IMG/VR virus record: IMGVR_UViG_3300008108_000013
DNA length: 64,000 bases
Origin: a virus
Taxonomy: Duplodnaviria; Heunggongvirae; Uroviricota; Caudoviricetes
Strand: one strand, 5' to 3'
Part shown: positions 1,481 through 33,132 of the stretch, in pieces
How positions within the stretch are numbered: position 1 is the stretch's first letter
Layout of the letters: every line of letters begins with the position of its first letter
Translations under genes and position numbers: made by a program
The notes under the pieces: model-generated
What the model was told of the DNA's origin: nothing
Databases searched by the model: none
What the model saw: only the letters and a program-made list of their open reading frames with translations

Positions 1481-2605
1481 ATGGGCCTACGTATAAGACG
1501 AGGAAGTGACGAAGCAAGGGCAAACACATCTTTAGACCAAGGTGAGTTAGTTTGGACTAGCAGTCAAGGAACAACTGGTGCAAATTATCACCAACTTTGG
1601 GTAGGTACTGGAATAGGTACTGGTGGTGTAAACATCCTAGAAACTTCAGCAGGATACGGCCTATCTTGGGACGCAGAAACACAAAGATTAGAAGTTTCAG
1701 GGCTTACAACCGACGACATTTCAGTTGGACTCAACAACAAATACTTTACTAACGAACTAGCTGTTGACGCGGTTGCAGCCGCATTAGTAGCAGGCAATGC
1801 AACTAACTCAAATATTACGTTTGTCTATTCAAATACACAAGATGACGCAAACAGAATTAATGCTATTGTTTCTCTCGACGGTATTGGTATTACTGATCTA
1901 GTTGATGACACTACACCTCAACTCGGTGGCAATTTAGATTTAAACAGTAACGATATTACAGGTACAGGTAATGTTGACATAACTGGAGATATTGGTCTTG
2001 CTGGCAGCATTGTTGCAGAAGGTGACACTGGAACTTTAACAATTAACGGGACACAACTTTCAGCTAATACAGAATACGTAACCGTCGGAACTAGTGCTTC
2101 TCCTGTTGGTATTATTGTTAAGAATACAGGACTGATTGACGGCCTTAATGTTATTTCTCCATCGACAACAAACAACGGCCCAAATATTGCTTTTTCAGCA
2201 GTAGGCGGTAGTATAGATGCTCCAGAAGTATTAACAGTCGGAGATTCGTTAGGTCAAGTCCGTTTCCAAGGATACCAAGATACTCCAGTTGGTGAAATAC
2301 AAGCCAACATGGTTACTATCAATGCTGTATTAGCAGTAGCAGGTGATGGTGCTAGTATCCTACCAAGAGGCAAACTACAGTTCTTAATTGCTAACGGTCC
2401 TAATCCTGTAGATGCTGCCACAGCAGAATTTAATAAAGATGGTGTATTTTCTGCACCAGTAATGCGCCCAGGATCGTTTACTACTACACAAAGAAATGCA
2501 CTAACACCAGCAGTTGGAATGATCATTTATAACACAACCGCAAACAAATTCCAAGGTTATCAAAACACAGGCGGCTCAACACTTGAGTGGGTTGACCTAA
2601 GTTAA
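1481..2605 (+). CDS. virion structural / tail-fiber-like protein
   Basis: The N-terminus LRIRRGSDEARANTSLDQGELVWTS resembles the QLRRDTAANW..GE N-domain of the tail-fiber gene at 60463. The sequence is Gly/Thr/Asn-rich and fiber-like, and a late-promoter box lies upstream. Confidence 0.55.
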   Translation: MGLRIRRGSDEARANTSLDQGELVWTSSQGTTGANYHQLWVGTGIGTGGVNILETSAGYGLSWDAETQRLEVSGLTTDDISVGLNNKYFTNELAVDAVAAALVAGNATNSNITFVYSNTQDDANRINAIVSLDGIGITDLVDDTTPQLGGNLDLNSNDITGTGNVDITGDIGLAGSIVAEGDTGTLTINGTQLSANTEYVTVGTSASPVGIIVKNTGLIDGLNVISPSTTNNGPNIAFSAVGGSIDAPEVLTVGDSLGQVRFQGYQDTPVGEIQANMVTINAVLAVAGDGASILPRGKLQFLIANGPNPVDAATAEFNKDGVFSAPVMRPGSFTTTQRNALTPAVGMIIYNTTANKFQGYQNTGGSTLEWVDLS

Positions 2606-3401: not shown

Positions 3402-4232
3402 ATGGCACATTTAAATGTAATAGTTCCTTCTGAGATTGATTACTGGCCTTATTCTTATCCAGATAATCCAGTGTCAACTACTACAGAGTTTGCTGGCCCA
3501 GATAGCCGAGAATTGTACGAAAGAAATTTAAAATACTTACCCCAAGATTGGATTTATCGTAAAACAGATATAGAATATTCCTTTAACAGTAGTAGGTTAA
3601 GAATGAACAAGGATATCGAGAATGTTGATCAATCTTATATATTGTTTAGCGGTACTAGTTATACAATGGGAGTAGGAATTAAAGAAGAAGATCGGTTCTC
3701 TGAAAAAATTAGTAAACAGTTGAATCTGGACTTCATAAACTTTGCAGGTCCTACATATAGTGTTAAAATACAAACAATATCTTTTTTCAATTTATTAAAA
3801 ACAAATCTTCCTCTTCCTAAGGTGTTAGTCGTTGAGTATGCTCCTGAAATAGGATATACCTTTTACAACAATGGAAATTTTGTTTGTGCTAATAAGCCTT
3901 TTTTAAAACACTTGCAAGGACATGATACACAGGCCGATGTTTATAAAACTTTACTCGATACCGATTTCTTTTTTCAAGAAGCAAACATTTATAGAAATAT
4001 GTTGATTGGAACTTGTAAACGGCTTGGAATCAAAATGTTAGAGGTATCCTTTAACATTAACGATAGATTTGTAACTGAAAACGGAATACTTTCCATCGAC
4101 GATGAATATAAAGGTGTTGATATCAGCACAGAGCTTGCTCGAGATGTTAGAATACATAATGGTAATTATTCTGCACATCCGGGAACAGGAATACATCAGT
4201 TGATAACAGATCGACTACTAAAACTAATATGA
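3402..4232 (+). CDS. hypothetical protein, possibly SGNH/GDSL-like hydrolase
   Basis: ILFSGTSYTMGVG (GDSx-like block I) and SAHPGTGIH (DGxHP-like block V). Weak. Confidence 0.3.
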   Translation: MAHLNVIVPSEIDYWPYSYPDNPVSTTTEFAGPDSRELYERNLKYLPQDWIYRKTDIEYSFNSSRLRMNKDIENVDQSYILFSGTSYTMGVGIKEEDRFSEKISKQLNLDFINFAGPTYSVKIQTISFFNLLKTNLPLPKVLVVEYAPEIGYTFYNNGNFVCANKPFLKHLQGHDTQADVYKTLLDTDFFFQEANIYRNMLIGTCKRLGIKMLEVSFNINDRFVTENGILSIDDEYKGVDISTELARDVRIHNGNYSAHPGTGIHQLITDRLLKLI

Positions 4233-4876
4233 GCTCATTGACACTCTTTACATCTGGCAGCACTAAAGAACCAAAAGAAGTTACACATCTTTGGTCAACT
4301 GTTGAGAAGTGCATACTAAGATCAATACAAGAAATAGGTTTAACTCGTTATGACACAGTACTAGATGTCTTTCCGGGAAATGTCATAGCACACTATACAG
4401 TTACAGCCTTTCCGGCAAAATACAGTGGAGCAAGATTAATTACTTCTAACTTTGATCCGTATAACTACATTAAACTATTTCAAAAGTATCAACCTACTTA
4501 TATTGCATTAATTCCTAGACACTATGATATACTGTCAAAGACTAAAGGTTGGAACGAATTAGATATGAGCTGTGTCCGTTATATGGTTATGGGAAGTAGT
4601 AATATCAGCCAATCTACTATAGATACTTTCAGATCCAAGGGTGTACAAACTGTAGCTAACTGGTACGGTATGACTGAAATGCCTCCACCTGTGTTTGTAG
4701 GTTATAATAGTGAATCATTTGATTTTACACCTAGACAAGGCTATACTGTAGAATTTACAGACGAAGGCGAGTGTATAGTTAACGGTGTGTTAACTGGTGA
4801 CTTATTTGATCTTAAGACTAAAAAATTTGTTTCAAGGAAAGTTCAATCTAATGGAAAAACTTGGAAGACAGTTTAG
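4229..4876 (+). CDS. truncated ANL-superfamily adenylate-forming enzyme (mini adenylation core)
   Basis: TSGSTKEPK (A3 P-loop) at residues 8-16, YGMTE (A5) at about residue 147 and TGD (A7) at about residue 198. The protein is only 215 aa and lacks the N- and C-terminal subdomains. ATGA overlap with the previous gene. Confidence 0.5.
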   Translation: MSSLTLFTSGSTKEPKEVTHLWSTVEKCILRSIQEIGLTRYDTVLDVFPGNVIAHYTVTAFPAKYSGARLITSNFDPYNYIKLFQKYQPTYIALIPRHYDILSKTKGWNELDMSCVRYMVMGSSNISQSTIDTFRSKGVQTVANWYGMTEMPPPVFVGYNSESFDFTPRQGYTVEFTDEGECIVNGVLTGDLFDLKTKKFVSRKVQSNGKTWKTV

Positions 4877-5438
4877 AAAATTAGAAGAAAAAGATATTCC
4901 TTCTCTACAGGAATTCTGTGACACTTGTAAAGATCTAGGCTATGTTAATAATCAATCATTTGAAGCTATTAAGTTAGATAAAATGGTAATGCCCTACGGA
5001 CAGTTTTTTGTCGGTGTTGACGATGATAAAATCTTTACCATAGCAGGGGTTCACAGACTGCCTGAGGTAAACGATCGAGCTTGGAGATGTCTTTTTAGAG
5101 GAGCGCAACTTCCTGGGTATACTCCTGCATGGAGCATGGACATATTTAAAAGTGGAATACACTTCAGTCAATTCTTATACCAGCAGATTAAATTTGTACA
5201 AGAACTAGATCCTGATGCAGACTTTTATGTGAGTACCAACGTTCATTCAACTGTAGGTGCTAAGAGCTCTAGAATGAACGATGTTATGATGCCAAGAATA
5301 GCTAAACGTGGTATCTGGACGCTGGCCTTAGAAAACTTCATGCTTTATAATGTTCCGCAGAACCTTTGGAAAATTAACGTTCAGCAGTATATGGAAGCCC
5401 GCGAGCGTTGGCTATCTGGCGAAAGCTGTAGGGATTAA
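4851..5438 (+). CDS. hypothetical protein
   Basis: ORF 4797..5438. The probable start is the MEKLGRQ ATG at 4851, which reduces overlap. No clear motifs; weak GNAT-like resemblance only. Confidence 0.4.
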   Translation: MEKLGRQFRKLEEKDIPSLQEFCDTCKDLGYVNNQSFEAIKLDKMVMPYGQFFVGVDDDKIFTIAGVHRLPEVNDRAWRCLFRGAQLPGYTPAWSMDIFKSGIHFSQFLYQQIKFVQELDPDADFYVSTNVHSTVGAKSSRMNDVMMPRIAKRGIWTLALENFMLYNVPQNLWKINVQQYMEARERWLSGESCRD

Positions 5439-6561
5439 ACAGAGTTTGATTTTCTTGTGGTAAATTAATTTTATCGATCTTATTAAAACTACGCCAATAA
5501 TCTGTGTGATCTAATTTACTAGTTTTAAAATGCAACGAAATAAAACGTCCTAGGTGGGCGTATAACCTACTCCATACCCGATTATACTTTTCAGCTCCTT
5601 GATTATCGTTGAGTAATCTGGCCAGCATTTTAACTGGAGCATGGATAATAAACAACCCTGTTGATTCGAGGGGATCTAAGAATCCTGCACTTAGTCCAAC
5701 CGCTACTACATTTTTCTTCCACGGTTCGGGATTATATTGATTAGAGAATGGAACTTCAAAAATTTTATCTTTCTTTAGGCCTGGAGTCTTTTTAATAAAC
5801 TCATCAACTGCTTGGTCAACACTAACGGCATCTTTGTTAAATGCATAGCCGTTGCCAGTTCGATGATCTAAACTAATTCTCCAACGCCAACCATAATCCA
5901 TTGCATAGGTTTGTGTGTAGTTTGCAGATGGTGCTGTGAAATCTCCAGGACCAGCTACAGCATAATTATTAATTAATCCGTCGTGCTTGACTAAGTTCTG
6001 TCCTAGTGGTTTTCTAATGATAGATCTAAATCCTGTACAATCAATGTATAAATCAGCGGTATACTTACCAGCTCTGCCAACTAAACATTTAACTCCATTT
6101 TCATCTAGTTGAACATCAAGTACATCATCGATGATGTGCTTAACACCTTTTGGAATACAAACAGTATCGCGTAAAGCAATTCCCAATCTAGTAGCATCTA
6201 CGTGATAAGCATGTCTCCACTTTTTAGTAGGCTTAGTTTTTGTTTCTAACCAATGTAACTGTTCTTCGTGTTCCGACTCGTCGAAACAAAAATGGTGCCA
6301 CCACTGATCGTTACCAGTAGTCCAGTTATTATGCTGGATGGTATATTTTCTGATAGCACTACATTTTTCAAAAAGATCTTGTTCAGAGAATCCAACGTCT
6401 TCCAAAAAGTCAACAATACTAGGAACTGTGCTTTCGCCTACTCCGATAATAGGAATATTGTCACTTTCTATGACAGAAATTTTACAGCTAGTTTTATTAG
6501 CAAGATATGCCGCTGCCATCCAGCCTGCACTGCCGCCACCGACTATTAGTATTGTTTTCAT
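5374..6561 (-). CDS. flavin-dependent (tryptophan-type) halogenase
   Basis: N-terminal GGGSAGW FAD-binding motif, GWRWRIS (variant of WxWxIP) and overall halogenase-like length of 395 aa. Confidence 0.75.
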   Translation of the reverse strand: MKTILIVGGGSAGWMAAAYLANKTSCKISVIESDNIPIIGVGESTVPSIVDFLEDVGFSEQDLFEKCSAIRKYTIQHNNWTTGNDQWWHHFCFDESEHEEQLHWLETKTKPTKKWRHAYHVDATRLGIALRDTVCIPKGVKHIIDDVLDVQLDENGVKCLVGRAGKYTADLYIDCTGFRSIIRKPLGQNLVKHDGLINNYAVAGPGDFTAPSANYTQTYAMDYGWRWRISLDHRTGNGYAFNKDAVSVDQAVDEFIKKTPGLKKDKIFEVPFSNQYNPEPWKKNVVAVGLSAGFLDPLESTGLFIIHAPVKMLARLLNDNQGAEKYNRVWSRLYAHLGRFISLHFKTSKLDHTDYWRSFNKIDKINLPQENQTLFNPYSFRQIANARGLPYTAER

Positions 6562-7733
6562 AATCTATATTCTTTATTAATTATATCGTTGACTCTGCCC
6601 ATTGGAATCTTAAACAACAAATGTGTTCTAGTTTTAGACCCTTGATTATGCGTAGCATGAGTTCTTTTCGTATTTATAAGGTAGGCCTTACCTGGTTGTA
6701 GATTATATTTCTTATCTCCAAATATAAAGTAAGATTTTTCGTCTACTTCTATAGGAAAGTGTATTCTTAAATGTGCATCTTTATCAATATGCGGAGGCAA
6801 CATAGAACCAGAAGTATGCGATGTAATTCCAAGTTCTTCAACATCATCAAATGTTTCTAATACCTTTTCGGCGAACCCGAAAACTAAAGGAGTTCTATTA
6901 GTAAATGCAGGTAGCTTTTCATCCTCAGGAGTTGAATCTTTTCCGCTAGGCGGGCTAATTGGTTTACTAGGATTTTTTAAATTACTTAATATACCGTATC
7001 CATGTATTGGGGAGGGTGTATCTAAAGTCCACTCGAGATGTACAAAGTCGTGTTTAACTTTAAAATAGTAGTCAGCTAACTCTTGATAGTTAAATTTAAT
7101 ATTAGGTAGCTCTAGTACATCAAAGTCAAATTGACTTTCATCTAGTAAGTACTCTCGATTTAATATTAAATCAATATCATCTTTATGTAGTTTAAAAATA
7201 AAATGAACTCTATCAGTATCACCTTCATTTTCAACTCCATGAGGTAGAGCTGTATTAATTAGATAGGCATGTCCTTCTTCTAGAACAAAGCTCTCATCTT
7301 CAAATTTAAAATAGCTTTTATCGTTTGCTTTGATAGGTATATGTATCTTAACAAACTCGTCGTTGTCCACATGCATATCGATACGTGTGCCTGGCGGATG
7401 GCCTGCAATTACTGTTTGTCTTACATCTGGAAATGCTTTAATAACTTTACGTGCAAAGCCAAATATCAAATCAGTTGGAACCTTAAAGTCGTTATTTGGG
7501 TGGACTTCGTTATCTTCTTTGACATGATAAGGCGGACAAGGTTTACTTGGATCTTTTAAATTGCTCTGTATAGCCCAGCTATACATATCGGCTACATTAT
7601 GTGTCTTAACATCAAAGTCCTTATCTACAGTCCACTTAAGATGCTGGTAATCGTTAACCACTTGATTGTAGTAATCAAGTAATTCTTTGTAAGAAAATTT
7701 TATATTAGATAATTTTATAACTTTAAAATCCAT
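6558..7733 (-). CDS. tandem-duplicated double AspH-like cupin oxygenase
   Basis: Two complete repeats within one ORF. Each has an N-terminal IKFxYxEL(L/A)DYY segment and an HxD...H cupin core (GHPPGTRIDMHVD..ALPHGVEN and SHTSGSMLPPHIDKD..RTHATHN). Confidence 0.6.
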   Translation of the reverse strand: MDFKVIKLSNIKFSYKELLDYYNQVVNDYQHLKWTVDKDFDVKTHNVADMYSWAIQSNLKDPSKPCPPYHVKEDNEVHPNNDFKVPTDLIFGFARKVIKAFPDVRQTVIAGHPPGTRIDMHVDNDEFVKIHIPIKANDKSYFKFEDESFVLEEGHAYLINTALPHGVENEGDTDRVHFIFKLHKDDIDLILNREYLLDESQFDFDVLELPNIKFNYQELADYYFKVKHDFVHLEWTLDTPSPIHGYGILSNLKNPSKPISPPSGKDSTPEDEKLPAFTNRTPLVFGFAEKVLETFDDVEELGITSHTSGSMLPPHIDKDAHLRIHFPIEVDEKSYFIFGDKKYNLQPGKAYLINTKRTHATHNQGSKTRTHLLFKIPMGRVNDIINKEYRL

Positions 7734-8176
7734 TATACACTCTTTAACATATCATAGACATTACTGTTTATTTCGTCATGTAAAACAGTATTATTAAATA
7801 ATTCACTTATATACATTTCAACTCCTCTGGATCTCGATCGTCCCTTAGCACAATAGATGTGTACTATAGATCCTTGTGGAATAGTTTCAATAAACTTTTT
7901 TAATTCTACTGCTTGTTCTTTGGAACAGGCATGAGCATAAATTATTCTTTGGTCATTATTAAACCAAGGTATAACTTTTAATCCTGTTTTATGTACATCA
8001 TCGAAATATAAATTAATTACGTTTCTATGTTCTTTTTTAAAATAAGGAATTCCGTGTATCCAGCCAGTTGCATTTATACAAATAAAATATTCGTTAAGTA
8101 ACTCAACATTACTGTCGTTGATGTCGGACATGGCCTCTTCAAAGGAGGATCGAGAATATCTTCTAACGTCTAGCAT
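7733..8176 (-). CDS. dual-specificity / tyrosine phosphatase-like protein
   Basis: CX5R P-loop VHIYCAKGRSRSRG with an upstream acidic YFDDVH. Confidence 0.55.
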   Translation of the reverse strand: MLDVRRYSRSSFEEAMSDINDSNVELLNEYFICINATGWIHGIPYFKKEHRNVINLYFDDVHKTGLKVIPWFNNDQRIIYAHACSKEQAVELKKFIETIPQGSIVHIYCAKGRSRSRGVEMYISELFNNTVLHDEINSNVYDMLKSV

Positions 8177-8741
8177 AAAATTCTAAAACACGATTTACTT
8201 TTTCTAATTTTTCGCCTGTTAAAAAATGTTTACCAATAAAGAATTTTAAATCTATATTGGACATTACAGGATTCCTTAACCAAAACTCTATAAGATCCTT
8301 TAGTTGATTTTTACTGATTCCCTCTTTACTATTTGATGTATCTTCAACTTCTGTTATAGTTAAGTGTAGCAGATTAGTTATATCTGTCTTTTTTTCTAAG
8401 GGAATCATCTTACAACGATCTTTTAACTCATGTTTAATTTTTGAATAGGGATCATTTATAGCCTGATAAAAATCTCCCGAAATACTTCCAATGACTAGCA
8501 TATTCGGAACCCACCCATATACATCTTCAAGTAGTTTAATTTGATAATCTTCTACACAGGCGCAATTAATAAACAAGTCTGCTGATCGTGCTTCTTTAAC
8601 TATTTCATCATAGTTGATTGTAAAATCGTATCCTGTAGTTCTACTAAGCTGTACAGTTCCTTCGAACATTTCGAATAACCATTTTCCCAAGAAGTGACTA
8701 GGATTTTCAGAAGACCCGCCGCCGGTCATAACTACTTTCAT
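8163..8741 (-). CDS. hypothetical protein with Rossmann-like N-terminus
   Basis: KVVMTGGGSS Gly-rich N-terminus. No further confident motifs. Confidence 0.3.
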   Translation of the reverse strand: MKVVMTGGGSSENPSHFLGKWLFEMFEGTVQLSRTTGYDFTINYDEIVKEARSADLFINCACVEDYQIKLLEDVYGWVPNMLVIGSISGDFYQAINDPYSKIKHELKDRCKMIPLEKKTDITNLLHLTITEVEDTSNSKEGISKNQLKDLIEFWLRNPVMSNIDLKFFIGKHFLTGEKLEKVNRVLEFYARR

Positions 8742-9394
8742 AGATATAATCCTTTAACATCGTCAGTCCATACTTTTCCATATAAATGTATTCTGTTCGA
8801 ACTACCTTTGTTTTCAACACTATGGGGCAAAGTAGTATTAACTAGATATGCCCACCCAGGTTCCATATGATATTCTTCTCCGTCGATAATCCAATTACTT
8901 TCAAGATTAGTATATATAGGTATGTGTACTCTAATCTTGTCAGGACTGTCTTGATGAGTTATTAACTTAGTTCCTGGTACGTGATCAGTGACTAACCATT
9001 TCTTACTTCGTATAGGCATCGATTGTACAATCTCAAGAGCATAGCCATAAAAGCATTTTCTTGGATTTAGTTTATCATTGTCGTTGTCTTGATACTCTGG
9101 TTTAGCCATTCCTTGCTCAAATGGCTTCGGGCCTGGCTCATCATTACTCCAACAAAGGGTATAGTAGCCTGTATCATCTGGCAATATGTGTCCTGTTGTA
9201 CCAGTCATATCAACGATAGGTTCTTGCCAGACGTGATGATTTTCACCGACTAAAAATTTCCAATCTCGATATTTCGTTTCTAAGTCTTTATACCATTGTT
9301 GCAGTTGTACAGCATCTACCTTAAACCAAGGTTTAACTTTAAATCCAAGATCGACAGAATCAAAGTTCTGTATATACCTTTTCATTTTAGTCAT
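8738..9394 (-). CDS. AspH-like 2OG/Fe(II) cupin oxygenase
   Basis: DHVPGTKLITHQD...RVHIPIYTN...LPHSVEN, the same architecture as 2678. Confidence 0.6.
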   Translation of the reverse strand: MTKMKRYIQNFDSVDLGFKVKPWFKVDAVQLQQWYKDLETKYRDWKFLVGENHHVWQEPIVDMTGTTGHILPDDTGYYTLCWSNDEPGPKPFEQGMAKPEYQDNDNDKLNPRKCFYGYALEIVQSMPIRSKKWLVTDHVPGTKLITHQDSPDKIRVHIPIYTNLESNWIIDGEEYHMEPGWAYLVNTTLPHSVENKGSSNRIHLYGKVWTDDVKGLYL

Positions 9395-10115
9395 TAGTTA
9401 AATCAATAACCTTTGTTAATTGCCAAGGAGCAATTCTAGTAATAATATGAGATCTAAATTCTTTAGACTCGTTGGATGTTCCGTGCCAGTCACCGGTGTT
9501 TAAGATATAAATTTTTCCTAGCTTCATATGGTATTCCCTTTCTTTATTTGGGCCAAAATGAAACTTTGCATTTTCATTTGTTTCTACAGGTATATGTAAC
9601 TTTAAAACTTTACTGTCGAGATGCTGTCTAATATACATACCTGGATGATGAGTAGTAATAATCATCTGTCTAAAAGAGTCTTCACCTAAAACAGATATCA
9701 TTTCTTCTAAGTACCCGAATTTCATTTTTGACATTATCTTAGCATCATCAAAAAACGTATTCCTATTAACTTCAGGAAATAACTCAAGATTGCATTGTTG
9801 CGGAGGCGGTAACGGCTCATATCTTTCTGTTGGCCAAGAAAAGGTAATCCCATCGATAGGACCGCAGTAGTAACCACAATATCCTTCTTCAACCATTTGT
9901 TTACTTAATTCTAAGTCTAACTTTTCCGAGTAGGTATTAAAATTAAATCGCATGTGAGAAAACTTCTCATTTACTTGAGAATACCACTCTGATAATTTAC
10001 TAGTATCGAGCGAATAGTTAAGTTCCAGTAAATCCCAATCATTAGACTCAATTAAAAATTCTTCGGTTATTCCGTGATTTTTGGGATCGTAGTCTTTGAT
10101 AATACGTGCTTTCAA
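9387..10115 (-). CDS. AspH-like 2OG/Fe(II) cupin oxygenase
   Basis: THHPGMYIRQHLD...LHIPVETN...GDWHGTSN. Confidence 0.55.
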   Translation of the reverse strand: MKARIIKDYDPKNHGITEEFLIESNDWDLLELNYSLDTSKLSEWYSQVNEKFSHMRFNFNTYSEKLDLELSKQMVEEGYCGYYCGPIDGITFSWPTERYEPLPPPQQCNLELFPEVNRNTFFDDAKIMSKMKFGYLEEMISVLGEDSFRQMIITTHHPGMYIRQHLDSKVLKLHIPVETNENAKFHFGPNKEREYHMKLGKIYILNTGDWHGTSNESKEFRSHIITRIAPWQLTKVIDLTND

Positions 10116-10153: not shown

Positions 10154-11188
10154 ATGAGGTGCAAATATTTAGATAACCAAGTGTGCATAAGATCAAACGG
10201 ACAATACAGACTGTGTTGTGCGAGTTTAGAATCTGACAATTTAGAAAATGTTAGAACGCATACTATTGAAGAATGGCGTAACAGTCCAACACACGTTATC
10301 ACAAGACAACAGTTAGAAAATAATATTTGGCCGGATGCGTGTCTTAAATGTAAATTGGACGAAGATGCTGGTAGATCAAGCCAACGATTAAAAACTGCCG
10401 AATATGGCCCGGGACTAACACATTTAGATTTAAGATTTAGCAATAGTTGTAATTTATCTTGTAGTATGTGTTGGCCCGGAAGTTCTTCAAAATTAGTCGA
10501 AGAACACAAAGCATTGGGGGAGTTGTCACCTTGGGGAAGTTTAACCTTTGACCTAGTAAATTGGTACGAAGAAGATTTAGTCGGTAATCTAATTAAATCT
10601 GTTCCTGAATTAAAAGAGGTATACCTCACAGGTGGCGAACCTTTTATGGTTAAAGGCATATTAGACTTTTTAAAAAAGTTAGACGAGAACGTTACTGTAA
10701 GATTTAATACTAACGGTACTTTATACAATGATAAAATTTTTAAAGAATTAAAAAGATTTAAACACGTTAACATTAGTTTTTCCGTAGACGGAATTGGCAA
10801 AGTTAATGATTATATACGTTGGGGAAGTACTTGGAAAGAAATCGAATATAATATAAACAAGTATCAGGAACTTAGCGGTTTCTTTAGTGTTAGCTCTGTA
10901 GTACAAATTTTAAATATCCTTTACATTGATGAACTTAAAGAATGGGTTAAATCTCTAAACTTAGAACACTACGAAACATTCTTGTTGAATCCTAAGCATT
11001 ACTGCCTTTATAACGCTGTGGATGATATAAAAAATACAGTTAAGGGTTACGATCATATTAGAAATATAGAAGCAGATGTCTCAGAACAAAATAAATTTGT
11101 TGAATATACTAATATTTTAGATAACAATAGAAATTGTAAGATAAGAGATTACTTACCGGAGGTTGCAAAACTTTATGGTATTAATTAA
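10154..11188 (+). CDS. radical SAM enzyme, family A (N-terminal Cys-rich extension)
   Basis: CIRSNGQYRLCC ... ACLKCKLDE ... SCNLSCSMC (CxxxCxxC) ... TGGEP ... C-terminal NNRNCKIRDYLPEV. Paralog of 15500, 16788, 18942 and 38120. Confidence 0.7.
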   Translation: MRCKYLDNQVCIRSNGQYRLCCASLESDNLENVRTHTIEEWRNSPTHVITRQQLENNIWPDACLKCKLDEDAGRSSQRLKTAEYGPGLTHLDLRFSNSCNLSCSMCWPGSSSKLVEEHKALGELSPWGSLTFDLVNWYEEDLVGNLIKSVPELKEVYLTGGEPFMVKGILDFLKKLDENVTVRFNTNGTLYNDKIFKELKRFKHVNISFSVDGIGKVNDYIRWGSTWKEIEYNINKYQELSGFFSVSSVVQILNILYIDELKEWVKSLNLEHYETFLLNPKHYCLYNAVDDIKNTVKGYDHIRNIEADVSEQNKFVEYTNILDNNRNCKIRDYLPEVAKLYGIN

Positions 11189-11624
11189 AGAAAATAAAGA
11201 AAAACATAGATCAGTATTCTTCGACGGAGAAAATTATGTCAAGGTGTGGGGCAATACTACTCCGCAGTGGATATCAGAACATGTAAGTATTCTTAATGAG
11301 CTAGTTCCTAACTACGTAATCGAGTATGGCGGCAATTGGATAAAATTTAAAACCGTACAAGGAACACCTGCTAGCGAATTTGATCATACTGAGGAATTTA
11401 TTAACAGAGTCTATAATTTTTGTTTAGAACAAATTGAGAAAACATTGCCGTATGCACACGGTGATTGGGTGTTAAGCAACATAATTATAAAAGAAGATTC
11501 TATGTTTATGGTAGACTGGGATAATGTTGGAATTTACCCTAAAGAAGAAATATATAAAAAACTACACAATGATTTAAAAAGTGCCTTTGGAGAAAAATAC
11601 AAGTATGACACCACAGTCGTTTAG
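11163..11624 (+). CDS. mini kinase, APH/choline-kinase-like catalytic segment
   Basis: HGDWVLSNIII (HGDxxxxN catalytic loop) followed by VDWDNVG (DxD/IDWE-like motif). Only 153 aa. Confidence 0.4.
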   Translation: MQNFMVLIKENKEKHRSVFFDGENYVKVWGNTTPQWISEHVSILNELVPNYVIEYGGNWIKFKTVQGTPASEFDHTEEFINRVYNFCLEQIEKTLPYAHGDWVLSNIIIKEDSMFMVDWDNVGIYPKEEIYKKLHNDLKSAFGEKYKYDTTVV

Positions 11625-12822
11625 TTACCCAACATTAGGTAAAGACGGATTAATTTATTGTCCGCCATACGGTTTAGACGAACCTATGGATTTTATGATT
11701 ACAATAAATCCTAAAACTTTTGATATTCAGAAACTCCCTATTAAGGTTAACAACAGTACAGAAAAATGGACATTTGGAATTACTGTAGATGATAAGATCT
11801 ATTGGTTGCCTTACGGCGAAAGCAAAGTGTTAGTAGTCAATACAACAACAAAGAAGGTCGATTACATTGATATTGATTGGCCTGATAATACAAAAAGCAT
11901 CAAAGGCAAATTTGTTCAAGGACACATTTATAAAAATAAAATTTATGCATTACCTTATGGCGAAGACCAACCACTTGACTACGTATTAATAATAGATACA
12001 ACTACTGATAACGCAGTCCTTAAACCCCTACACTTGCCTGATACCGATACTAAAAAATGGCATCAAAGTGTGTTGCGTGGTAATACAATATATGCTGTAC
12101 CTCGAGGTGGCTCTAAACCGTTTAATTTTGCAATCGAATATAATTGTGACGACTGTAGTGTTAAGTTTATAAACTTTAGCAAATACTATGAAGGGTATCA
12201 AGATACTAGCATGAAGTTTACAACTATAGGTATGATCGACGATATAATCTATGCGGCTCCGTATGGTTACCACGATGATTTTGATTTTTTAATTACAAAT
12301 AAAAAAGGTGAATGGAAATCGGAAAGAACTGGTATAACAGGAACAACAAGAAGATACTTCACTAACATCAAGACAAAAAATGAAAAATTATATTTTCCTC
12401 CTGCAGGCCATCACTCATCATGGAGTAAATTTTTAATCATCGACAGCAATGGCTATAAAACTATAGATCTTGGAATAACAAAGGAAACTAAAAAATACTT
12501 CGCAGGAGTTGAAAATAGCCAAGGCAAAGTCTATTATATTCCCCGAGGCGGATGTGTTTGTGATCCAGATGCCGAATTAAAATTAACCGGAGACCTAGCA
12601 GAAGTATTAGTATTTGATACTAAAGACGATAGTTACTATACTGTCGACGTAAGCAGTTGCTTCACTGATAATACAACTATAGAAAAGTACAATGCCTGTT
12701 GTATTGTCGATGACGTAATATTTGCTATGCCGTACGGTGAAAGCAATTCTTTTCAAACTGTATTAGTTTTTGATACAACACAAGATAAAATTATTAAAAC
12801 GATAGATCTAAATGGCATATAA
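11581..12822 (+). CDS. PYG-repeat protein (beta-propeller-like), paralog 1
   Basis: At least 8 repeats of about 45 aa with the core (I/L)Y(x)(x)P(Y/R)G(E/G)xxx and a trailing DTTT/NTTT (e.g. IYWLPYGESKVLVVNTTT, IYALPYGEDQPLDYVLIIDTTT). The start is uncertain; ATG 11605 is an alternative. Confidence 0.5.
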   Translation: MPLEKNTSMTPQSFSYPTLGKDGLIYCPPYGLDEPMDFMITINPKTFDIQKLPIKVNNSTEKWTFGITVDDKIYWLPYGESKVLVVNTTTKKVDYIDIDWPDNTKSIKGKFVQGHIYKNKIYALPYGEDQPLDYVLIIDTTTDNAVLKPLHLPDTDTKKWHQSVLRGNTIYAVPRGGSKPFNFAIEYNCDDCSVKFINFSKYYEGYQDTSMKFTTIGMIDDIIYAAPYGYHDDFDFLITNKKGEWKSERTGITGTTRRYFTNIKTKNEKLYFPPAGHHSSWSKFLIIDSNGYKTIDLGITKETKKYFAGVENSQGKVYYIPRGGCVCDPDAELKLTGDLAEVLVFDTKDDSYYTVDVSSCFTDNTTIEKYNACCIVDDVIFAMPYGESNSFQTVLVFDTTQDKIIKTIDLNGI

Positions 12823-13963
12823 AGCGTTCCAAGATTTTTATTTAGAAGAATCAATTAAACATCTGTTGTTAACAGAGTATAATGGCTGTTTAGTAAGTCC
12901 TCCCTTTGCTACAGAAAAATGCAAAGACTACAATCAAATTATGATCATCGGAAATGATGTGTCGTTTATTGATTTAGATTTGCCGCCTGCAACTAGCAAG
13001 TTTAATGCTTATACTGTGATAGGAGACAGTCTTTGGCTAATACCGTATGGTATCTGGGATAACTTTAATGTCGTGGTACAATTAAAAGATTTTAAACCTA
13101 TATATCATTATATCGATAAACCAGGAAAAGGCCAATTTTATAATGTAGCATCTAATGGCGAAACTGCTTTTAGTTTTCCTTTAGGGTACGAAGATACAAG
13201 TTTTGGGATCTTTATCAGGGATCAACAAGTCCATACAGTTGAATTTGAAAAACAATCTCAAACAAAATTACACATGGGCTGTGTATATGCAAATGGAAAA
13301 TATTGGAGTGCTCCTAGAGGTGACGAACCTGGCTATGTTAATATGATGAGTTTTGATGGCGAACAGTTAAAGTCGTATCCTATCAACTTGCCTAATCCTA
13401 ACATTACTAGAAAATACACCGATATTATTGTTAAAGGAAACACATTGTATGCTATGCCGTTTGGAGAACAACCGGGTTTGATGGAAGTTATAGAGTTTGA
13501 TACTGTTAGTGAAAATTACAAACTTCACAAACTGAATATGCCAGACGTTGCAAAAAAGTTTAACTGTATGGTAGAAGTTGATGAATATATTATCGGACTA
13601 CCTTACGGAACAAAAGGCGATACAAACAGTCGCTGGGGTATATCTTTTAATACTACAACTAACGATTCTGCTTGTTTTGACTTAGGGGAAGATTTTGCCG
13701 ACGGTGGAAAATATCGTTTTAGATGCGGAGTTAATTTTAATAACAATGCTGTATTTTTTCCTGCTGGTACTCCTGACTGTCCAATAGTTAAAGTCAGTAA
13801 AGACTTAACAATTACTACAAAGCACATTGAGGGCGTTATGTTTGGTAGACCTATTGTACATGACAATAAGTTAAAAGTCTTAGGTTATGATATGCGCGAT
13901 GCTACTAACTCGCTTTATGAGTTTGATGAGAGTTTAAATTACTCTAAAACCTTTTTAAGATAA
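12812..13963 (+). CDS. PYG-repeat protein (beta-propeller-like), paralog 2
   Basis: LWLIPYGIWDNF, YWSAPRGDEPGY, LYAMPFGEQPGL and IIGLPYGTKGDT repeats. Confidence 0.5.
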   Translation: MAYKAFQDFYLEESIKHLLLTEYNGCLVSPPFATEKCKDYNQIMIIGNDVSFIDLDLPPATSKFNAYTVIGDSLWLIPYGIWDNFNVVVQLKDFKPIYHYIDKPGKGQFYNVASNGETAFSFPLGYEDTSFGIFIRDQQVHTVEFEKQSQTKLHMGCVYANGKYWSAPRGDEPGYVNMMSFDGEQLKSYPINLPNPNITRKYTDIIVKGNTLYAMPFGEQPGLMEVIEFDTVSENYKLHKLNMPDVAKKFNCMVEVDEYIIGLPYGTKGDTNSRWGISFNTTTNDSACFDLGEDFADGGKYRFRCGVNFNNNAVFFPAGTPDCPIVKVSKDLTITTKHIEGVMFGRPIVHDNKLKVLGYDMRDATNSLYEFDESLNYSKTFLR

Positions 13964-14844
13964 ATGTCGCTAAGACAACTACATTTATTAGTACCGCAGA
14001 CAATCGGACTGTTAGGGAGTATAAAAGAATCTATAGTTCCAATCTTGCCGCCTTGCTGACAATCTGCTCGATAAACATCTCCCCACTGATCAATACTAAC
14101 CATATGCTGTCCTGCCCAGCATTTCCATCCTTTGAAGTTATTAAGACCCTTTAGTATTAAATCGTTACCCGATACTCGCTGTCCGTCTAATGCTATTTCA
14201 CCTCGATGCATCTTGTAGTCATTAACTGATCTAAAATAAGGCCACTGGTTTATGATTCTTCTTTGTTGTTCTGTGTAATCAGCAACTTCATTAGAGATGT
14301 GATTTATATCGCTTTTATCTAAAATAACTTTTGGCCATACAATAACATTAGGTGATCCGTTATACAACTTATCAGCTACTGCTAGTAGCTCATCAAATTT
14401 ATCAGGCACTAGCATTAGGTTGACTGCTACTACTCCTTTAATTGTTTGAGCAACATTAACGCAATGATCAACATCAGCATACTCTGGATGGTAGCTAAGT
14501 ATCATGCCATCAGTATAGTTACTAATAGATTTAAAATATTCAACACTTTGACTGCCGTTAGTTAAAAAGCTAAAAGTATGGCCTTGTTCTTTAACTACTT
14601 TAGCCATGTCAATAAAGTGTTTCCAATAAGTCGGTTCACCGCCGCTGATTCGATAGCAAATTTCCTTGCCCGGCAAATTAAAATTTTCTATAAATCTCTT
14701 AACTGATTCCCAAGTCGGCCAACCTGAACTACCATCATGCAAATTGCTAGGGCAATAACTACACCTATAATTACATTTGTTTGATAGTGTCCAGCTGACT
14801 AGAAACCAATCTTCTTTTTTAGGATCGAGATAAGTTAATTTCAT
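13939..14844 (-). CDS. radical SAM/SPASM-like enzyme, family B
   Basis: SNKCNYRCSYCPS (CxxxCxxC), ISGGEPTYW, HPEYADVDH and a C-terminal Cys cluster (CWAG..CQQGG..CGTNKCSC). Confidence 0.7.
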   Translation of the reverse strand: MKLTYLDPKKEDWFLVSWTLSNKCNYRCSYCPSNLHDGSSGWPTWESVKRFIENFNLPGKEICYRISGGEPTYWKHFIDMAKVVKEQGHTFSFLTNGSQSVEYFKSISNYTDGMILSYHPEYADVDHCVNVAQTIKGVVAVNLMLVPDKFDELLAVADKLYNGSPNVIVWPKVILDKSDINHISNEVADYTEQQRRIINQWPYFRSVNDYKMHRGEIALDGQRVSGNDLILKGLNNFKGWKCWAGQHMVSIDQWGDVYRADCQQGGKIGTIDSFILPNSPIVCGTNKCSCLSDIYLKKVLE

Positions 14845-15503
14845 TAGTACACATTCATTCCGTGTTTAAGGATAATATCATGTGTACGTTGATTTAATTT
14901 AACTGTTAATATCATTGAATAGACACTATCAGTAAAACTAAACACAGAATGTTCTCTTTGGAAATTAGCAAAGTAAAAATAGCCAGGATCAAAGTACAAC
15001 GGTTTACCATCAAGTAACTGTACATAGTTCTCCGGCTTGCACTTTCCAAATGTCATTATAAGGCGTAGGTATTCTGGTGCAGGGCCTGGATAGTCTACGT
15101 GCGGCGGAAAGAACCCGCCAGCATCTAATTTTAAAAAATGTACACGACCGATATCTGGTCTAAAAATATCAACTACTTGCTGTATCTCAGGAAGTGCATG
15201 ATATACTTGTGTTGGCGTTGTGAAGTTATCATCTTTTAAATCAACATCATGATAATTTTGTAAGTAACCAAAACTGTTTAAGTGATAGTTATCCATGACA
15301 TCGCCTGTGTGGCTAGTTACAGGTAACCCCCACCTATTATTGTGCGTATCTTTTTTTAAGTTATAAGGGCACCAGTTATCTTTAAATTGTAAAAGGTCGT
15401 GCTCTAACTTCAATGGTTCGACACGAAGTTTTAATTTAAGGTACAGACCTAAGTTTGTTAGGCTGTGCCATAGCAACCCTCTTTCAATTTCTTCATTAGT
15501 CAT
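14844..15503 (-). CDS. cupin 2OG/Fe(II) oxygenase-like protein (divergent AspH-like)
   Basis: GRVHFLKLDAGGFFPPHVD ... FQREHSVFSF (HxD...H). Confidence 0.45.
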   Translation of the reverse strand: MTNEEIERGLLWHSLTNLGLYLKLKLRVEPLKLEHDLLQFKDNWCPYNLKKDTHNNRWGLPVTSHTGDVMDNYHLNSFGYLQNYHDVDLKDDNFTTPTQVYHALPEIQQVVDIFRPDIGRVHFLKLDAGGFFPPHVDYPGPAPEYLRLIMTFGKCKPENYVQLLDGKPLYFDPGYFYFANFQREHSVFSFTDSVYSMILTVKLNQRTHDIILKHGMNVY

Positions 15504-16795
15504 AATATTTTTAAGTCCGGAAAAATTTTCCTAAAATCTGTATTCCTTGTTTGGTCACATATTTCTAAATACTCAACAGTACTAGGTAATTTAGAAGACC
15601 AGTCTTCGGACATCATGTATCCGATTAATCCTTCCCAACGCTGTTTTCCGTATGTGTTATTTACAAAACCAGGATCTTGGTACTCATTTAAAAAGGCTTC
15701 AATCCTAGATTTTGCCAATTGTTTTAACTCTAACGGCAAAACTTTAACATTTAAATAGCTTGGTAAGTACACCAAATGCAATCCGATAACACCGCCACCA
15801 TATGGATATAGATTAATCTTTTTAAAGTTAGATTGAATCTTCCAGCGAGCTAGATCAGTTATGTATAGGACATTTAGTAACTGAACAGCGCAGGCAACAT
15901 TTATAGTAATATGATCAGGTGTATTGTCTAACTTATTCAAGTTTGTAACAACGTCTGCCCACTTACTAGGATAACGAATGTAGTCATTGTGTTCACCAAG
16001 TGCATCTATACTAAAATTAAACTTAACCTGTTTGAATTGATTCCAAAGATCAAACAACTTGTCAGGTAGCTCTAAACCGTTTGAGTTGTATCTTAATATA
16101 CAGTTCTTAGCATGTCCACTTTCTACCATGAACTCTAATATTTTATAGTGCTCGGGTATTAGTAAAGGTTCACCACCGGCAAAGTACAACTCTTTGATAT
16201 TGTGTGCTTGAGCCTTCATGTTTTCTAAGAAGGCGCTATCCTTATACCAGGTGTAATCAAATGTTCTATCCCAACCTTGATCTTGTTTAAGCTCAACAGT
16301 CTTATACTTAGGATACTGTTGTTTCCAATCTTTAATCCAGCTTGAACTATCGTGTGGACTACACATGACACATTTTAGTTGACATAAGTTACCCAAACGC
16401 AAGTCGAAGTAGGGTATATCAACAGGTAATGTTCCGTCTGAACCTGTCTTAGTAACAATGCTATCAATATCAACACGATCCTTCCATACCATAGTTTCCC
16501 ATTGACGTTTACTTGTGATACCTTTACTTTCTTCTTCAAAACATTTAGTACAACTATTCGGAACTTCACCATTAAGCATTTGTAAACGAGTTGTCTTCAT
16601 GCTTTCGCTATTCCATACTTCGTCTATAGAATGCTTTGCTAAGTTTAAAACCTGTCCTTGGTGTTTAACTAATCCTGCTTCTTTGTCGTCAACTATTCCT
16701 GCACCGCTAGCATTGGCCGTGCAACATACTCTTACATCACCGTTTGGTCTTGTAGCGATATGAATCCAAGGAAGTGGGCAAAAGGTCTTACTCAA
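15500..16795 (-). CDS. radical SAM enzyme, family A
   Basis: MSKTFCPLPWIHIATRPNGDVRVCC, NSCTKCFEEE, GNLCQLKCVMC, AGGEP and C-terminal QTRNTDFRKIFPDL. Confidence 0.75.
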   Translation of the reverse strand: MSKTFCPLPWIHIATRPNGDVRVCCTANASGAGIVDDKEAGLVKHQGQVLNLAKHSIDEVWNSESMKTTRLQMLNGEVPNSCTKCFEEESKGITSKRQWETMVWKDRVDIDSIVTKTGSDGTLPVDIPYFDLRLGNLCQLKCVMCSPHDSSSWIKDWKQQYPKYKTVELKQDQGWDRTFDYTWYKDSAFLENMKAQAHNIKELYFAGGEPLLIPEHYKILEFMVESGHAKNCILRYNSNGLELPDKLFDLWNQFKQVKFNFSIDALGEHNDYIRYPSKWADVVTNLNKLDNTPDHITINVACAVQLLNVLYITDLARWKIQSNFKKINLYPYGGGVIGLHLVYLPSYLNVKVLPLELKQLAKSRIEAFLNEYQDPGFVNNTYGKQRWEGLIGYMMSEDWSSKLPSTVEYLEICDQTRNTDFRKIFPDLKIL

Positions 16796-18104
16796 AAAGC
16801 TCTCCTAGTTCTGGAGTAACATCTAAAATGTTTTGATTGCGGCGCTGGTCGATAACTTTTGTAAATCTAACAAACTCAGGAATACGTTCTTGTGATAGAT
16901 CTTCCTGATCCATGAAGTTTAAAATTGATTTTAGTATAGAAACTGATGCAGACTTTACATTGTCATTTAGATCACTTTCTAAGAATTTGTTAATCCAGCT
17001 ATCGTAATGTAACTTTAATTTATTTCTTATAGACTCTGGATACATCCTAACACTAACACAATATGGTTTGTGTACAGGGTGTGTAGTTATAACAGGTCTT
17101 TTCTCTCTAGAATTAATTTTTTTAAATCCGCTATCAACTAATTTCCACCACATAAATTCCGGCAAGTGAAAAGCATTGTAGGCACTAACAGTGTATGTTA
17201 TATGGACCATAACGTTAGGATTTTGTTGACATATCTCATCTAGCTGTATTAAGTTCTTAAGGGTAGTATTCCATTTAATAGGATATCGTTGATACTCTTG
17301 CATAGACCCCATGCCGTCAACGCTGGCACCTATTCTAACTTGTTTAAACTGTGTCCAAAGTTCTAAAACTTTTTTCGGTAATGATGTGATATTTGTATTA
17401 TATTCTAGGATTATTTTTGAAGCTCGACCAGCGGCAATACACTTTTCTAAGAATAGAGTATGCCTATCTATAATTAAAGGCTCTCCGCCTGCCATGTAAA
17501 CGTGTTCAATATTATTAATTTGTTCTTCTATCTGCTGCCAAAAGAATTCTGACTCGTGCCAGTTGTAATCATCAGTGACAAACCTTCCTTTGTCGTTCCT
17601 TATCAAATGGACCCACCCGTGACTATCTAAGAACCCCTGCTTTTGATCATACGCAACCCAATCCTCATACCACGAGTGGCTGTCTGTTGGCCCGCACATA
17701 CGACAGGCAAGATTACAGGTGTTACCGAATCTTAAATCGTAATAGCGAGTATCTAAGTTTATACTCCCATCATCGTTTGTACTGTTTACTGCATCTTCGT
17801 AAGTAAAGTTCCACTGATCAATTTCGTTAAGACGTCTGCTAGACATACCAGATTCTTCTTCTTGCTGGCATCTTTTACATTCATCACTCCACACACCATT
17901 AATAATATTCTTCCGAATCTCTTTAATCATGATAGCATTTTTAGCATCAACTATAGAATCTTTACCTGCATTAAAGGGTGTTCCATCATCTTTTCTTGCA
18001 GTTCCTTGATTAGGAGTCACGTTGGCTTGGCAACAAACACGCATGTCGCCATTGTTGCGTACTGCTTGATGTATCCAAGGTAAAGGACAGAATGTTTTAG
18101 ACAT
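16788..18104 (-). CDS. radical SAM enzyme, family A (tandem paralog)
   Basis: MSKTFCPLPWIHQAVRNNGDMRVCC, DECKRCQQEE, GNTCNLACRMC, AGGEP and C-terminal QRRNQNILDVTPEL. Confidence 0.75.
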   Translation of the reverse strand: MSKTFCPLPWIHQAVRNNGDMRVCCQANVTPNQGTARKDDGTPFNAGKDSIVDAKNAIMIKEIRKNIINGVWSDECKRCQQEEESGMSSRRLNEIDQWNFTYEDAVNSTNDDGSINLDTRYYDLRFGNTCNLACRMCGPTDSHSWYEDWVAYDQKQGFLDSHGWVHLIRNDKGRFVTDDYNWHESEFFWQQIEEQINNIEHVYMAGGEPLIIDRHTLFLEKCIAAGRASKIILEYNTNITSLPKKVLELWTQFKQVRIGASVDGMGSMQEYQRYPIKWNTTLKNLIQLDEICQQNPNVMVHITYTVSAYNAFHLPEFMWWKLVDSGFKKINSREKRPVITTHPVHKPYCVSVRMYPESIRNKLKLHYDSWINKFLESDLNDNVKSASVSILKSILNFMDQEDLSQERIPEFVRFTKVIDQRRNQNILDVTPELGELFE

Positions 18105-24693: not shown

Positions 24694-24873
24694 ATGGAAA
24701 ACGAAAAACTTATTTTTACAGCAGAAGAGATCTTCCAAGAAATACCTGGAGATCCAGACAATGTTATAATGAAATTTCCCGATGAAGTTTTAAAATTAAC
24801 AGGCTGGAAAGAAGGCGACATTTTAGATATCAACATAGAGGACGGAAAAATCGTAGTAAAAAAGAATGGCTAA
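24694..24873 (+). CDS. small hypothetical protein (59 aa)
   Basis: Not in the ORF track. ATG at 24694 and TAA at 24871, overlapping the IF-1 start by 8 nt. Confidence 0.3.
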   Translation: MENEKLIFTAEEIFQEIPGDPDNVIMKFPDEVLKLTGWKEGDILDINIEDGKIVVKKNG

Positions 24874-32944: not shown

Positions 32945-33132
32945 TGAGTGGACGTGGAATTATAATGCAAGAACCCGATACTGTTTGCGAACTGTGCGGG
33001 AAAATTGATGAGTGTAGGCCTTATGGCGCAAACGATGAACAAATCTGTTTTGATTGTGCTATGGCTACACCCGAATCACAGGCCATTGCTGAAAAGAAAA
33101 TGGCTAGATATATTTTTGGAGAAGAAGAATAA
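32944..33132 (+). CDS. small zinc-ribbon protein
   Basis: CELCGK...CFDC. Confidence 0.35.
   Translation: MSGRGIIMQEPDTVCELCGKIDECRPYGANDEQICFDCAMATPESQAIAEKKMARYIFGEEE

Follow-up and report, generated by a model that had tools for sequence, protein, structure and literature searches.

Organization of the locus

We analyzed a halogenase gene and its surroundings in a 64,000-nt stretch of viral DNA (IMG/VR record IMGVR_UViG_3300008108_000013, Caudoviricetes), to which we refer as the window. The gene is the last of six in a minus-strand operon running from position 10115 to position 5374 with overlapping stops and starts; the order is cupin, cupin, a 192-aa protein, a 147-aa phosphatase-like protein, a double cupin and the halogenase. 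The stop of the double-cupin gene overlaps the halogenase start in an ATGA, read directly from the sequence, and by this arrangement the halogenase is predicted to be translationally coupled to the cupin operon. On the plus strand, an operon of five genes (a fibre-like protein, a cupin, a 276-aa protein called P276 here, a 215-aa AMP-binding protein of the ANL superfamily called mini-ANL, and a 195-aa protein with a GNAT fold) converges on the halogenase gene.

An initial annotation of this DNA, made from its letters alone, had described a mini-ANL operon at 3402-5438 convergent with the halogenase gene and overlapping it. A tail-to-tail overlap of 65 nt is indeed present; the overlapping gene, however, codes for the GNAT-fold protein and not for the ANL protein. 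The operon end at 5438 was also placed well, but its start is probably further upstream, at 1481 or 2678. Related loci (L007, L012, and L015) also show convergent overlaps, of ~16–60 nt.

Family and catalytic residues of the halogenase

In a Pfam scan, the 395-aa protein matched PF04820 (Trp_halogenase) with an E-value of 2.9e-86 and 290.6 bits at a cut-off of 21, compared to E-values of 1e-3 to 1e-4 only for generic flavin adenine dinucleotide (FAD) families. The match to phrog_2928 (“tryptophan halogenase”) had an E-value of 4.6e-90. Among solved structures in the PDB, the best matches by sequence were the Trp 5-, 6-, and 7-halogenases (E-values from 5e-53 to 5e-46), and the viral halogenase VirX1 was matched at 1.2e-46. 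These results agree with the call of a flavin-dependent halogenase in the initial annotation, which had also placed its two motifs correctly: GGGSAGW occupies residues 8–14 and GWRWRIS residues 224–230.

The FAD motif GxGxxG reads G8-G-G-S-A-G13 and is invariant across the clade of close relatives. Further motif positions are E43, K72, W225-x-W227-x-I-S230, and F294-x-x-P297-x-E299-S-T-G302; the last, in full F294-L-D-P297-L-E299-S-T-G302, is the tunnel motif FxxPxxSxG. In the HMMER alignment to PyrH, K72 (in IRKYT) pairs with K75 and E299 with E354. The position of the catalytic lysine (PrnA K79, PyrH K75) is thus held by K72, and since PrnA numbering equals PyrH numbering minus 8 at the end of the aligned stretch, E299 corresponds to PrnA E346, the active-site glutamate of that enzyme.

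Conservation was assessed in alignments of 33 relatives with 42–84% identity to the window halogenase and then of 50 unique clade sequences. We found E43, K72, W225, W227, F294, P297, and E299 in every sequence of both alignments. The first Glu of the EPLE segment is less constant; it is D296 in the window halogenase, with Asp in 4 and Glu in 46 of the 50 clade members. Both residues on which the initial annotation had hung its claim, the catalytic Lys and Glu, are therefore present and invariant. Flavin monooxygenases, named there as a possible better match, reached only ~18–21 bits against the 290.6 bits of PF04820. Judged by its sequence, the product of 5374-6561 is a genuine flavin-dependent halogenase whose catalytic Lys and Glu are intact, and it is presumably active as such.

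A carrier-protein-dependent halogenase of the PltA type (“variant B”) was rejected on sequence distance and because no carrier-protein families were found among the island genes scanned against Pfam. PltA, CndH, and CmlS were matched at E-values of 1e-4 to 1e-6 only, chiefly in the N-terminal part.

A shortened scaffold

Lengths were compared for halogenase open reading frames (ORFs) extracted from 176 loci. In 41 loci of the short clade the proteins had 365–406 aa (median 395), compared to 467–540 aa (median 516.5) in 56 loci of other phage halogenases and 482–748 aa (median 504) in 79 loci of cellular relatives. Relative to PrnA- and PyrH-type enzymes, ~110–120 residues are lost. The window halogenase aligns solely to residues ~3–95 and ~157–417 of the PyrH chain (511 residues), and a MAFFT alignment placed the losses after halogenase residues 94 and 112, around 364–367, and at the C-terminus. 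Going by structures of the PrnA type, we assign the missing parts to the helical module in which tryptophan is held. A complete Trp substrate module, with the segment after ~95 and the C-terminal helices in a protein of ~510–540 aa in total, is absent from the window halogenase.

The AlphaFold2 (AF2) model of the halogenase was confident throughout, with a predicted local distance difference test score (pLDDT) of 93.8. Foldseek aligned the model to 50 halogenase chains, including Xcc4156, PyrH, PrnA, Thal, and VirX1, with probability 1.00 and template modeling (TM) scores normalized by the query (TMq) of 0.82–0.91; normalized by the target, the scores were lower (0.62–0.73). The tight length across 41 loci together with the confident model points to a selected, folded protein and not to a fragment. 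A frameshifted longer halogenase gene was ruled out, given that the length is kept in the 41 loci and that the DNA downstream is a conserved gene, that of the GNAT-fold protein.

The segments STVPSI and HHFCF of the halogenase resemble the “indole-type” group (VirX1, the Xcc enzymes, BrvH) and not the signatures of Trp halogenases, namely, ATFS.., HPFE[RQ], Q..Q, and [YH]YHG[FL]..YS (PMC8269204). The segments Q..Q and [YH]YHG[FL]..YS would fall within the deleted regions. “Tryptophan halogenase” is, therefore, to be read as a family label and not as a statement of substrate. Because the parts that form the pocket are gone, free tryptophan is an unlikely substrate.

The same shortening could be taken to mean that the protein is no halogenase in vivo, being either a flavin monooxygenase or an inactive truncated remnant. 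It is at least 100 aa shorter than every characterized member of the family, it has no WxWxIP proline, and it weakly matches LodB and QhpG-type flavin monooxygenases (E-values of 1e-8 to 1e-11, far below cut-offs). We consider this reading very improbable: sequences of 42–100% identity show no variation in the Lys, the Glu, the two Trp residues, or the tunnel motif, the length is tight and the model confident, and the gap in Pfam bit scores (290 to ~18–21) favors PF04820.

The mini-ANL protein and its GNAT-fold partner

The minimal adenylating enzyme that the initial annotation placed next to the halogenase proved to be a member of a conserved family with the core ATP/AMP motifs of the ANL superfamily. 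It aligns with residues ~150–340 of 500-aa coenzyme A (CoA) ligases and carries motifs A3 (T8-S-G-S-T-K-E-P-K16), A5 (Y146-G-M-T-E150), and A7 (T189-G-D191) as well as R203 and a C-terminal T-W-K213. Residues T8, G10, T12, Y146, G147, E150, T189, and D191 were invariant in 13 family members with 30–54% identity to the window protein. Members of the family (P0274-P0301) have ~203–242 aa and reach down to 30% identity, with R203 and T-W-K invariant or nearly so; intermediate ANL forms of 316–329 aa also lack the N-terminal ~150 residues. The two-domain ANL architecture, with an A1-A2 N-terminal subdomain and a C-terminal domain bearing the A10 lysine, is not seen here, and the lysine of the C-terminal T-W-K may stand in for the A10 lysine, which is absent along with the C-terminal domain. 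As the motifs are kept across the family, we regard the protein as a selected minimal ANL and not as a gene fragment. An enzyme superfamily that has been studied very thoroughly is here reduced in a way not described before. Fatty-acyl and aryl-CoA ligases, and not amino-acid adenylation domains, are closest to the mini-ANL.

The GNAT-fold protein gave no Pfam match. Its family is an orphan one: a set of 5.8 billion proteins contained only 284 relatives, and Pfam domains were absent from all of them. Its profile matched the GNAT structure 3t9y with an E-value of 2e-4. In a Foldseek search with its AF2 model (pLDDT 86), all 50 listed PDB matches were GNAT-family acyltransferases, with probability 1.00 and target-normalized TM scores of 0.53–0.68. 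The stretch R83-G-A-Q86-L-P-G89-Y-T is invariant and follows a predicted strand at 77–86; its Q-x-x-G-x-T partly fits the pattern Q/R-x-x-G-x-G/A, by which GNAT enzymes bind the pyrophosphate of acyl-CoA after strand 4.

Association of the halogenase with the ANL-GNAT pair

We observed a convergent GNAT and ANL pair next door in 19 of the 24 short-halogenase loci from IMG/VR, with the pair absent from the other 5, compared to none of the 56 ordinary phage halogenase loci. Seen from the other side, in a search that started from the GNAT family, a mini-ANL gene stood directly upstream of the GNAT gene in 56/56 loci. For 47 ANL-GNAT loci there was room for a neighbor; the convergent slot held a halogenase in 33 (27 short and 6 long) and none in 14. 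Long halogenases of 501–511 aa, 25–28% identical, occupied the slot in L195, L200, L202, L225, and L232, and a similarly distant halogenase match lay there in L212, for which the ORF was not extracted. The long forms in the slot of L195, L200, L225, and L232 suggest that the short halogenase may have been reduced in situ. In ANL-GNAT loci with no halogenase, the convergent neighbor was the next cupin of the operon. On one contig (IMGVR_UViG_3300013285_000579, loci L020 and L184), ~14 kb separate the short halogenase from the ANL-GNAT pair, and a gene of a dual-specificity-phosphatase (DSP)-like protein precedes the halogenase.

A halogenase of either length is clearly favored in the convergent slot, and the counts (19/24 and 33/47) make the link between halogenase and ANL strong, not obligatory. 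The tight unit is the ANL-GNAT pair (56/56, compared to 33/47 for the halogenase), with the halogenase as a frequent but dispensable neighbor.

The initial annotation had taken adenylation next to halogenation as a hint that an aromatic or amino-acid substrate is activated and halogenated. In such a two-enzyme pathway, the mini-ANL would adenylate an aromatic acid or amino acid and the halogenase would chlorinate or brominate the small molecule so activated. The two genes are indeed neighbors that associate non-randomly, the ATP-binding motifs of the mini-ANL are kept family-wide, and its solved relatives include aryl-CoA ligases (feruloyl- and 4-coumarate-CoA ligases). Still, the genes lie on opposite strands in separate operons, the halogenase gene being ATGA-coupled to a cupin gene; the constant partner of the ANL protein is the GNAT-fold protein; ANL-GNAT pairs occur apart from any halogenase (14/47) and short halogenases apart from ANL (5/24); no carrier protein was found among the scanned island genes; and the ANL protein lacks the C-terminal domain that canonical enzymes require for both half-reactions. 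A single pathway of this kind is, in our estimate, unlikely, so that of the proposed pair the association stands and the common pathway is not established.

Distribution and phage origin

Metagenomic contigs, reaching 215 kb in length, carry the identical halogenase protein. Relatives of ~395 aa with 42–86% identity form more than 100 clusters, some of them on contigs of 280–405 kb and some in Tara samples. Halogenases of cultured cyanophages and pelagiphages are ~27–32% identical to the window halogenase. In a set with one genome per bacterial or archaeal species, identity of cellular halogenases did not exceed 34% among the matches listed, and the closest cellular sequences among them were from Caulobacter, Alteromonadaceae, and sphingomonads (29–34%). 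With respect to these cellular matches, the short clade has so far been seen solely on what appear to be phage contigs. UniProt contains a 393-aa protein of an “uncultured Caudovirales phage”, automatically named “Flavin-dependent halogenase”, which is 68% identical with a TM score of 0.98; the clade is, therefore, already represented among deposited sequences. The literature searched contained no study of the short halogenase clade.

No DNA-level match to the region was found in cultured phages, and no real homolog of the mini-ANL was found among them. The pelagiphage HTVC008M was rejected as an instance of the same arrangement: its halogenase has 464 aa and lies between terminase genes.

The phage origin assumed by the initial annotation is well founded: the halogenase clade lies on IMG/VR contigs, and next door to the locus is a phage rIIB gene whose best matches are in the jumbo phages Xoo-sp13, XacN1, RsoM2USA, and PA5oct, which infect Xanthomonas, Ralstonia, and Pseudomonas. 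For rIIB and for the DNA ligase that the window also encodes, the nearest cultured relatives have ~34–52% identity. Tail-fibre-like genes and a 4087-aa ORF (47906-60169, +) are present as well; there are no tRNA genes in the window. We conclude that the carrier of the halogenase is an uncultured large aquatic phage.

Neighboring genes of the island

Coordinates of the genes around the halogenase are given in Table 1.

Table 1. Genes and features of the halogenase locus, in window coordinates.
Feature	Coordinates	Strand	Basis or remark
Fibre-like protein, 374 aa, probable first gene of the operon	1481..2605	+	Weak PF26696 PTL_trimer (precomputed annotation)
AspH-type cupin, 240 aa	2678..3400	+	PF05118, E-value 1.2e-5
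P276, 276 aa	3402..4232	+	ATGA-coupled to ANL; invariant FSGTSY..G.G and Y..HPG.G.H
Minimal ANL (AMP-binding) protein, 215 aa	4229..4876	+	PF00501, E-value 1.5e-17, profile positions 168-346 of 384
GNAT-fold protein, 195 aa from ATG 4851 (ORF open from GTG 4797)	4851..5438	+	Profile, AF2/Foldseek
Tail-to-tail overlap (65 nt) of the halogenase and GNAT-fold genes	5374..5438		ORF coordinates
Short-form flavin-dependent halogenase, 395 aa	5374..6561	-	PF04820 match, motifs, AF2 model
Protein with two AspH-type cupin (Asp_Arg_Hydrox) domains, 391 aa	6558..7733	-	PF05118, E-value 3.2e-23, two stretches
Dual-specificity-phosphatase-like protein, 147 aa, C-x5-R (YCAKGRSRS)	7733..8176	-	Motif; phrog_5614
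192-aa protein, N-terminal VVMTGGG Rossmann-like start	8163..8741	-	Orthologues in L022, L038, L039
AspH-type cupin dioxygenase, 218 aa	8738..9394	-	PF05118, E-value 3.3e-11
AspH-type cupin dioxygenase, 242 aa, first gene of the operon	9387..10115	-	PF05118, E-value 8.6e-8
Radical SAM enzyme, N-terminal SPASM-like Cys-rich region	10154..11188	+	PF04055, E-value 1e-14

In the minus-strand operon, the phosphatase-like protein accompanies the cupins in most related loci, and its counterparts in L020 and L182 weakly match PF00782 (DSPc). The 192-aa protein gave no match in the Pfam search or the PDB profile search. It had been a candidate for a Rossmann-type flavin reductase serving the halogenase and was dropped, both searches being empty.

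In the plus-strand operon, a strong terminator lies at 1366-1387, just ahead of the fibre-like gene, and was the sole strong one in the scan; promoter-like sites were no more common than in shuffled sequence. The N-terminus of the fibre-like protein is shared with proteins upstream of ANL in L007 (Mtd_N), L012, and L182. P276 has orthologs in many, not all, related loci; it gave no match in Pfam, nor in the PDB by sequence or profile, and its motifs, read by eye, suggest that it is possibly SGNH-like.

The radical S-adenosylmethionine (SAM) gene of Table 1 is divergent from the cupin operon, and its position is conserved in related loci. Taken with the flanking radical SAM genes, the island is conserved in what we identify as uncultured large aquatic phages. 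Nine radical SAM genes were counted in the window: 10154-11188, 13939-14844, 15500-16795, 16788-18104, 18942-20237, 20203-21168, 21161-22168, 22749-23723, and 38120-39499. The genes at 10154-11188 and 15500-16795 are unusual in their order, with a SPASM-type Cys-rich match N-terminal to the radical SAM core.

Other plus-strand genes of the window are listed for completeness. A 413-aa protein (11581-12822) contains about eight repeats, each closing with (I/V)Y-x-x-P-(Y/R)-G; it gave no Pfam match and is probably a beta-propeller. A 72-aa homolog of translation initiation factor IF-1 is encoded at 24866-25084 (PF01176, E-value 1.1e-19), and two adjacent ClpP paralogs at 33132-33752 and 33810-34385 (E-values 4e-61 and 2.4e-36). 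Host-like genes code for an SPFH/Band 7 protein (31608-32405), a Bax1-I/YccA-like membrane protein (36373-37062), a PTPS/QueD-like enzyme (43431-44015), and an Fe/Mn superoxide dismutase (46691-47254).

Proposed role of the halogenase

We favor, with moderate confidence, a reading in which the gene codes for a competent halogenase of a reduced phage clade that performs a late tailoring step of the conserved island on a bulky substrate, with the ANL/GNAT pair as a separate module. Reduced FAD (FADH2) would be supplied by a flavin reductase of the host; the host is proposed because none was found among the 40 window proteins scanned against Pfam, the window being part of a genome of at least 200 kb. 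FADH2, O2, and a halide would yield hypohalous acid, which would travel to K72 and E299 and halogenate an electron-rich aromatic carbon. The substrate would be bulky and bring its own binding surface; a side chain in a peptide or protein, or an intermediate bound to a partner protein, would fit this description. The halogenase would act as the optional last gene of the operon of AspH-type hydroxylases. The mini-ANL and GNAT-fold proteins would form their own module, in which a carboxylate would be activated with ATP and then, probably, transferred to an amine.

A bulky peptide or protein substrate is preferred because the enzyme's own pocket appears to be gone and because the other families of the island include modifiers of proteins or peptides: the AspH, SPASM radical SAM, DSP, and GNAT families all have such members.

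Several observations weigh against this proposal. The argument for a bulky substrate comes from missing sequence and a predicted model, and VirX1 and Xcc4156 have open sites yet act on small molecules. Neither a precursor peptide nor a carrier protein came to light; a search of the gap at 23.7-25.1 kb for precursor peptides gave nothing convincing. The flavin reductase missing from the scanned proteins counts on the same side. The proline of WxWxIP, a motif that separates the substrate from the flavin, is absent from 50/50 clade members, which have S, C, or another residue there; variants of WxWxIP do occur in active halogenases, according to a review. A few proteins in the convergent slot (a 406-aa form in L223 and L230) carry a degenerate GWQFVID where WxWxI would stand. 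Finally, the fibre-gene neighborhood was seen in 4 of the 6 lineages examined, the other two having a different, 677-aa protein near a PAAR gene.

The fibre-like gene matters for a more specific version, which we put forward as possible and only tentatively, namely, that the short halogenase modifies Trp or Tyr side chains of a phage protein within an island for virion-protein or RiPP-like (peptides made by the ribosome and then modified post-translationally) modification. The fibre-like protein heading the neighboring operon would be the leading candidate target. Its partners in such a modification would be the AspH-type hydroxylases, the phosphatase-like protein, an ATP-dependent acylation by mini-ANL/GNAT, and the SPASM radical SAM enzymes.

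The AspH family also includes lipid hydroxylases, such as LpxO, and we count this toward a serious rival: a small secondary metabolite, halogenated as well as hydroxylated and either lipid-like or derived from a peptide, might be made during infection, with a free indole or phenol as the halogenase substrate. Small aromatics in free form are the substrates of VirX1 and of the best structural match, Xcc4156, and the ANL protein resembles fatty-acyl and aryl-CoA ligases. A precedent is the prediction for arrays of dioxygenases and halogenases in cyanophages (Iyer et al., PMC2938197). Serious as it is, we find a small-metabolite product rather doubtful. The scan of island genes revealed no scaffold-forming enzyme (nonribosomal peptide synthetase, polyketide synthase, or ATP-grasp), selective binding of a small molecule is harder to square with a lost substrate module, and the protein- and peptide-modifying members of the island families noted above point elsewhere.

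Significance of the reduced clade

Flavin-dependent halogenases are sought-after biocatalysts, and to our knowledge VirX1 is the sole characterized viral one. Phage halogenases are not new as a kind, since annotations are well known and one enzyme has been characterized. What is new is the reduced clade, so far known from phage-like contigs only, and its conserved placement among AspH-type cupins and numerous radical SAM enzymes, together with an obligate mini-ANL/GNAT pair.

A 395-aa scaffold that has kept the catalytic elements and lost the substrate lid could be a compact start for engineering and may take very large substrates. The island as a whole, with the halogenase, five AspH-type domains, the mini-ANL/GNAT pair, the phosphatase-like protein, nine radical SAM enzymes, and an adjoining fibre-like gene, suggests that some large aquatic phages invest >20 kb in modification chemistry. 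If the fibre-like protein were indeed the target, it would be the first halogenated phage structural protein.

Comparison with known systems

The window halogenase shares with PyrH, Thal, PrnA, and RebH the FAD box and the Lys and Glu at the same alignment positions; the Trp-binding regions of these enzymes (~95–157 and the C-terminal helices in PyrH) and their signatures are absent from it. Its best structural match is Xcc4156 (TMq 0.91), which belongs with BrvH to the “indole-type” proteobacterial halogenases (PDB 6Y1W and 6FRL). Enzymes of this group have STVPPI or ATIPSL after GVGE, compared to STVPSI of the same type here. They are, however, chromosomal proteins of 491–511 residues, whereas the window gene is ~110 residues shorter and located in a phage island. 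Related halogenases of alpha- and gamma-proteobacteria have been described in a TonB-receptor/SapC context (PMC2938197).

VirX1 of cyanophage Syn10 (PDB 6QGM; Gkotsi et al. 2019) is likewise a virus-encoded PF04820 halogenase, with K79 and the Glu conserved as in the window halogenase and a Foldseek TMq of 0.82 along with the sequence match at 1.2e-46. It has 531 aa and a complete C-terminal module, compared to 395 aa here, and identity is ~28%. Unlike the window locus, ordinary cyanophage-type halogenase loci do not carry the ANL-GNAT pair (0/56).

The mini-ANL has the A3 P-loop, A5 YGxTE, A7 TGD, and the A8 arginine in common with FadD13, 4-coumarate-CoA ligase, and feruloyl-CoA synthetase. 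Compared to these CoA ligases, it lacks the first ~150 residues and the C-terminal domain (~120–160 residues, with A9 and the A10 lysine).

Among gene arrays, the nearest parallel is in the work of Iyer et al. (2010), who described tandem dioxygenase and halogenase arrays in cyanophages and predicted a peptide-derived modification chemistry for them (PMC2938197). In bacterial operons, beta-hydroxylases and acetyltransferases were predicted in the same study to modify tail-collar or collagen-like proteins. The gp49-gp54 region of Syn9, like the window island, combines distantly related Fe/2-oxoglutarate-type oxygenases with PF04820 halogenases. The window phage, unlike Syn9, is not a known cyanophage, and its island differs from the Syn9 array in having AspH-type cupins, the obligate mini-ANL/GNAT pair, a DSP-like protein, nine radical SAM genes, and a short halogenase.

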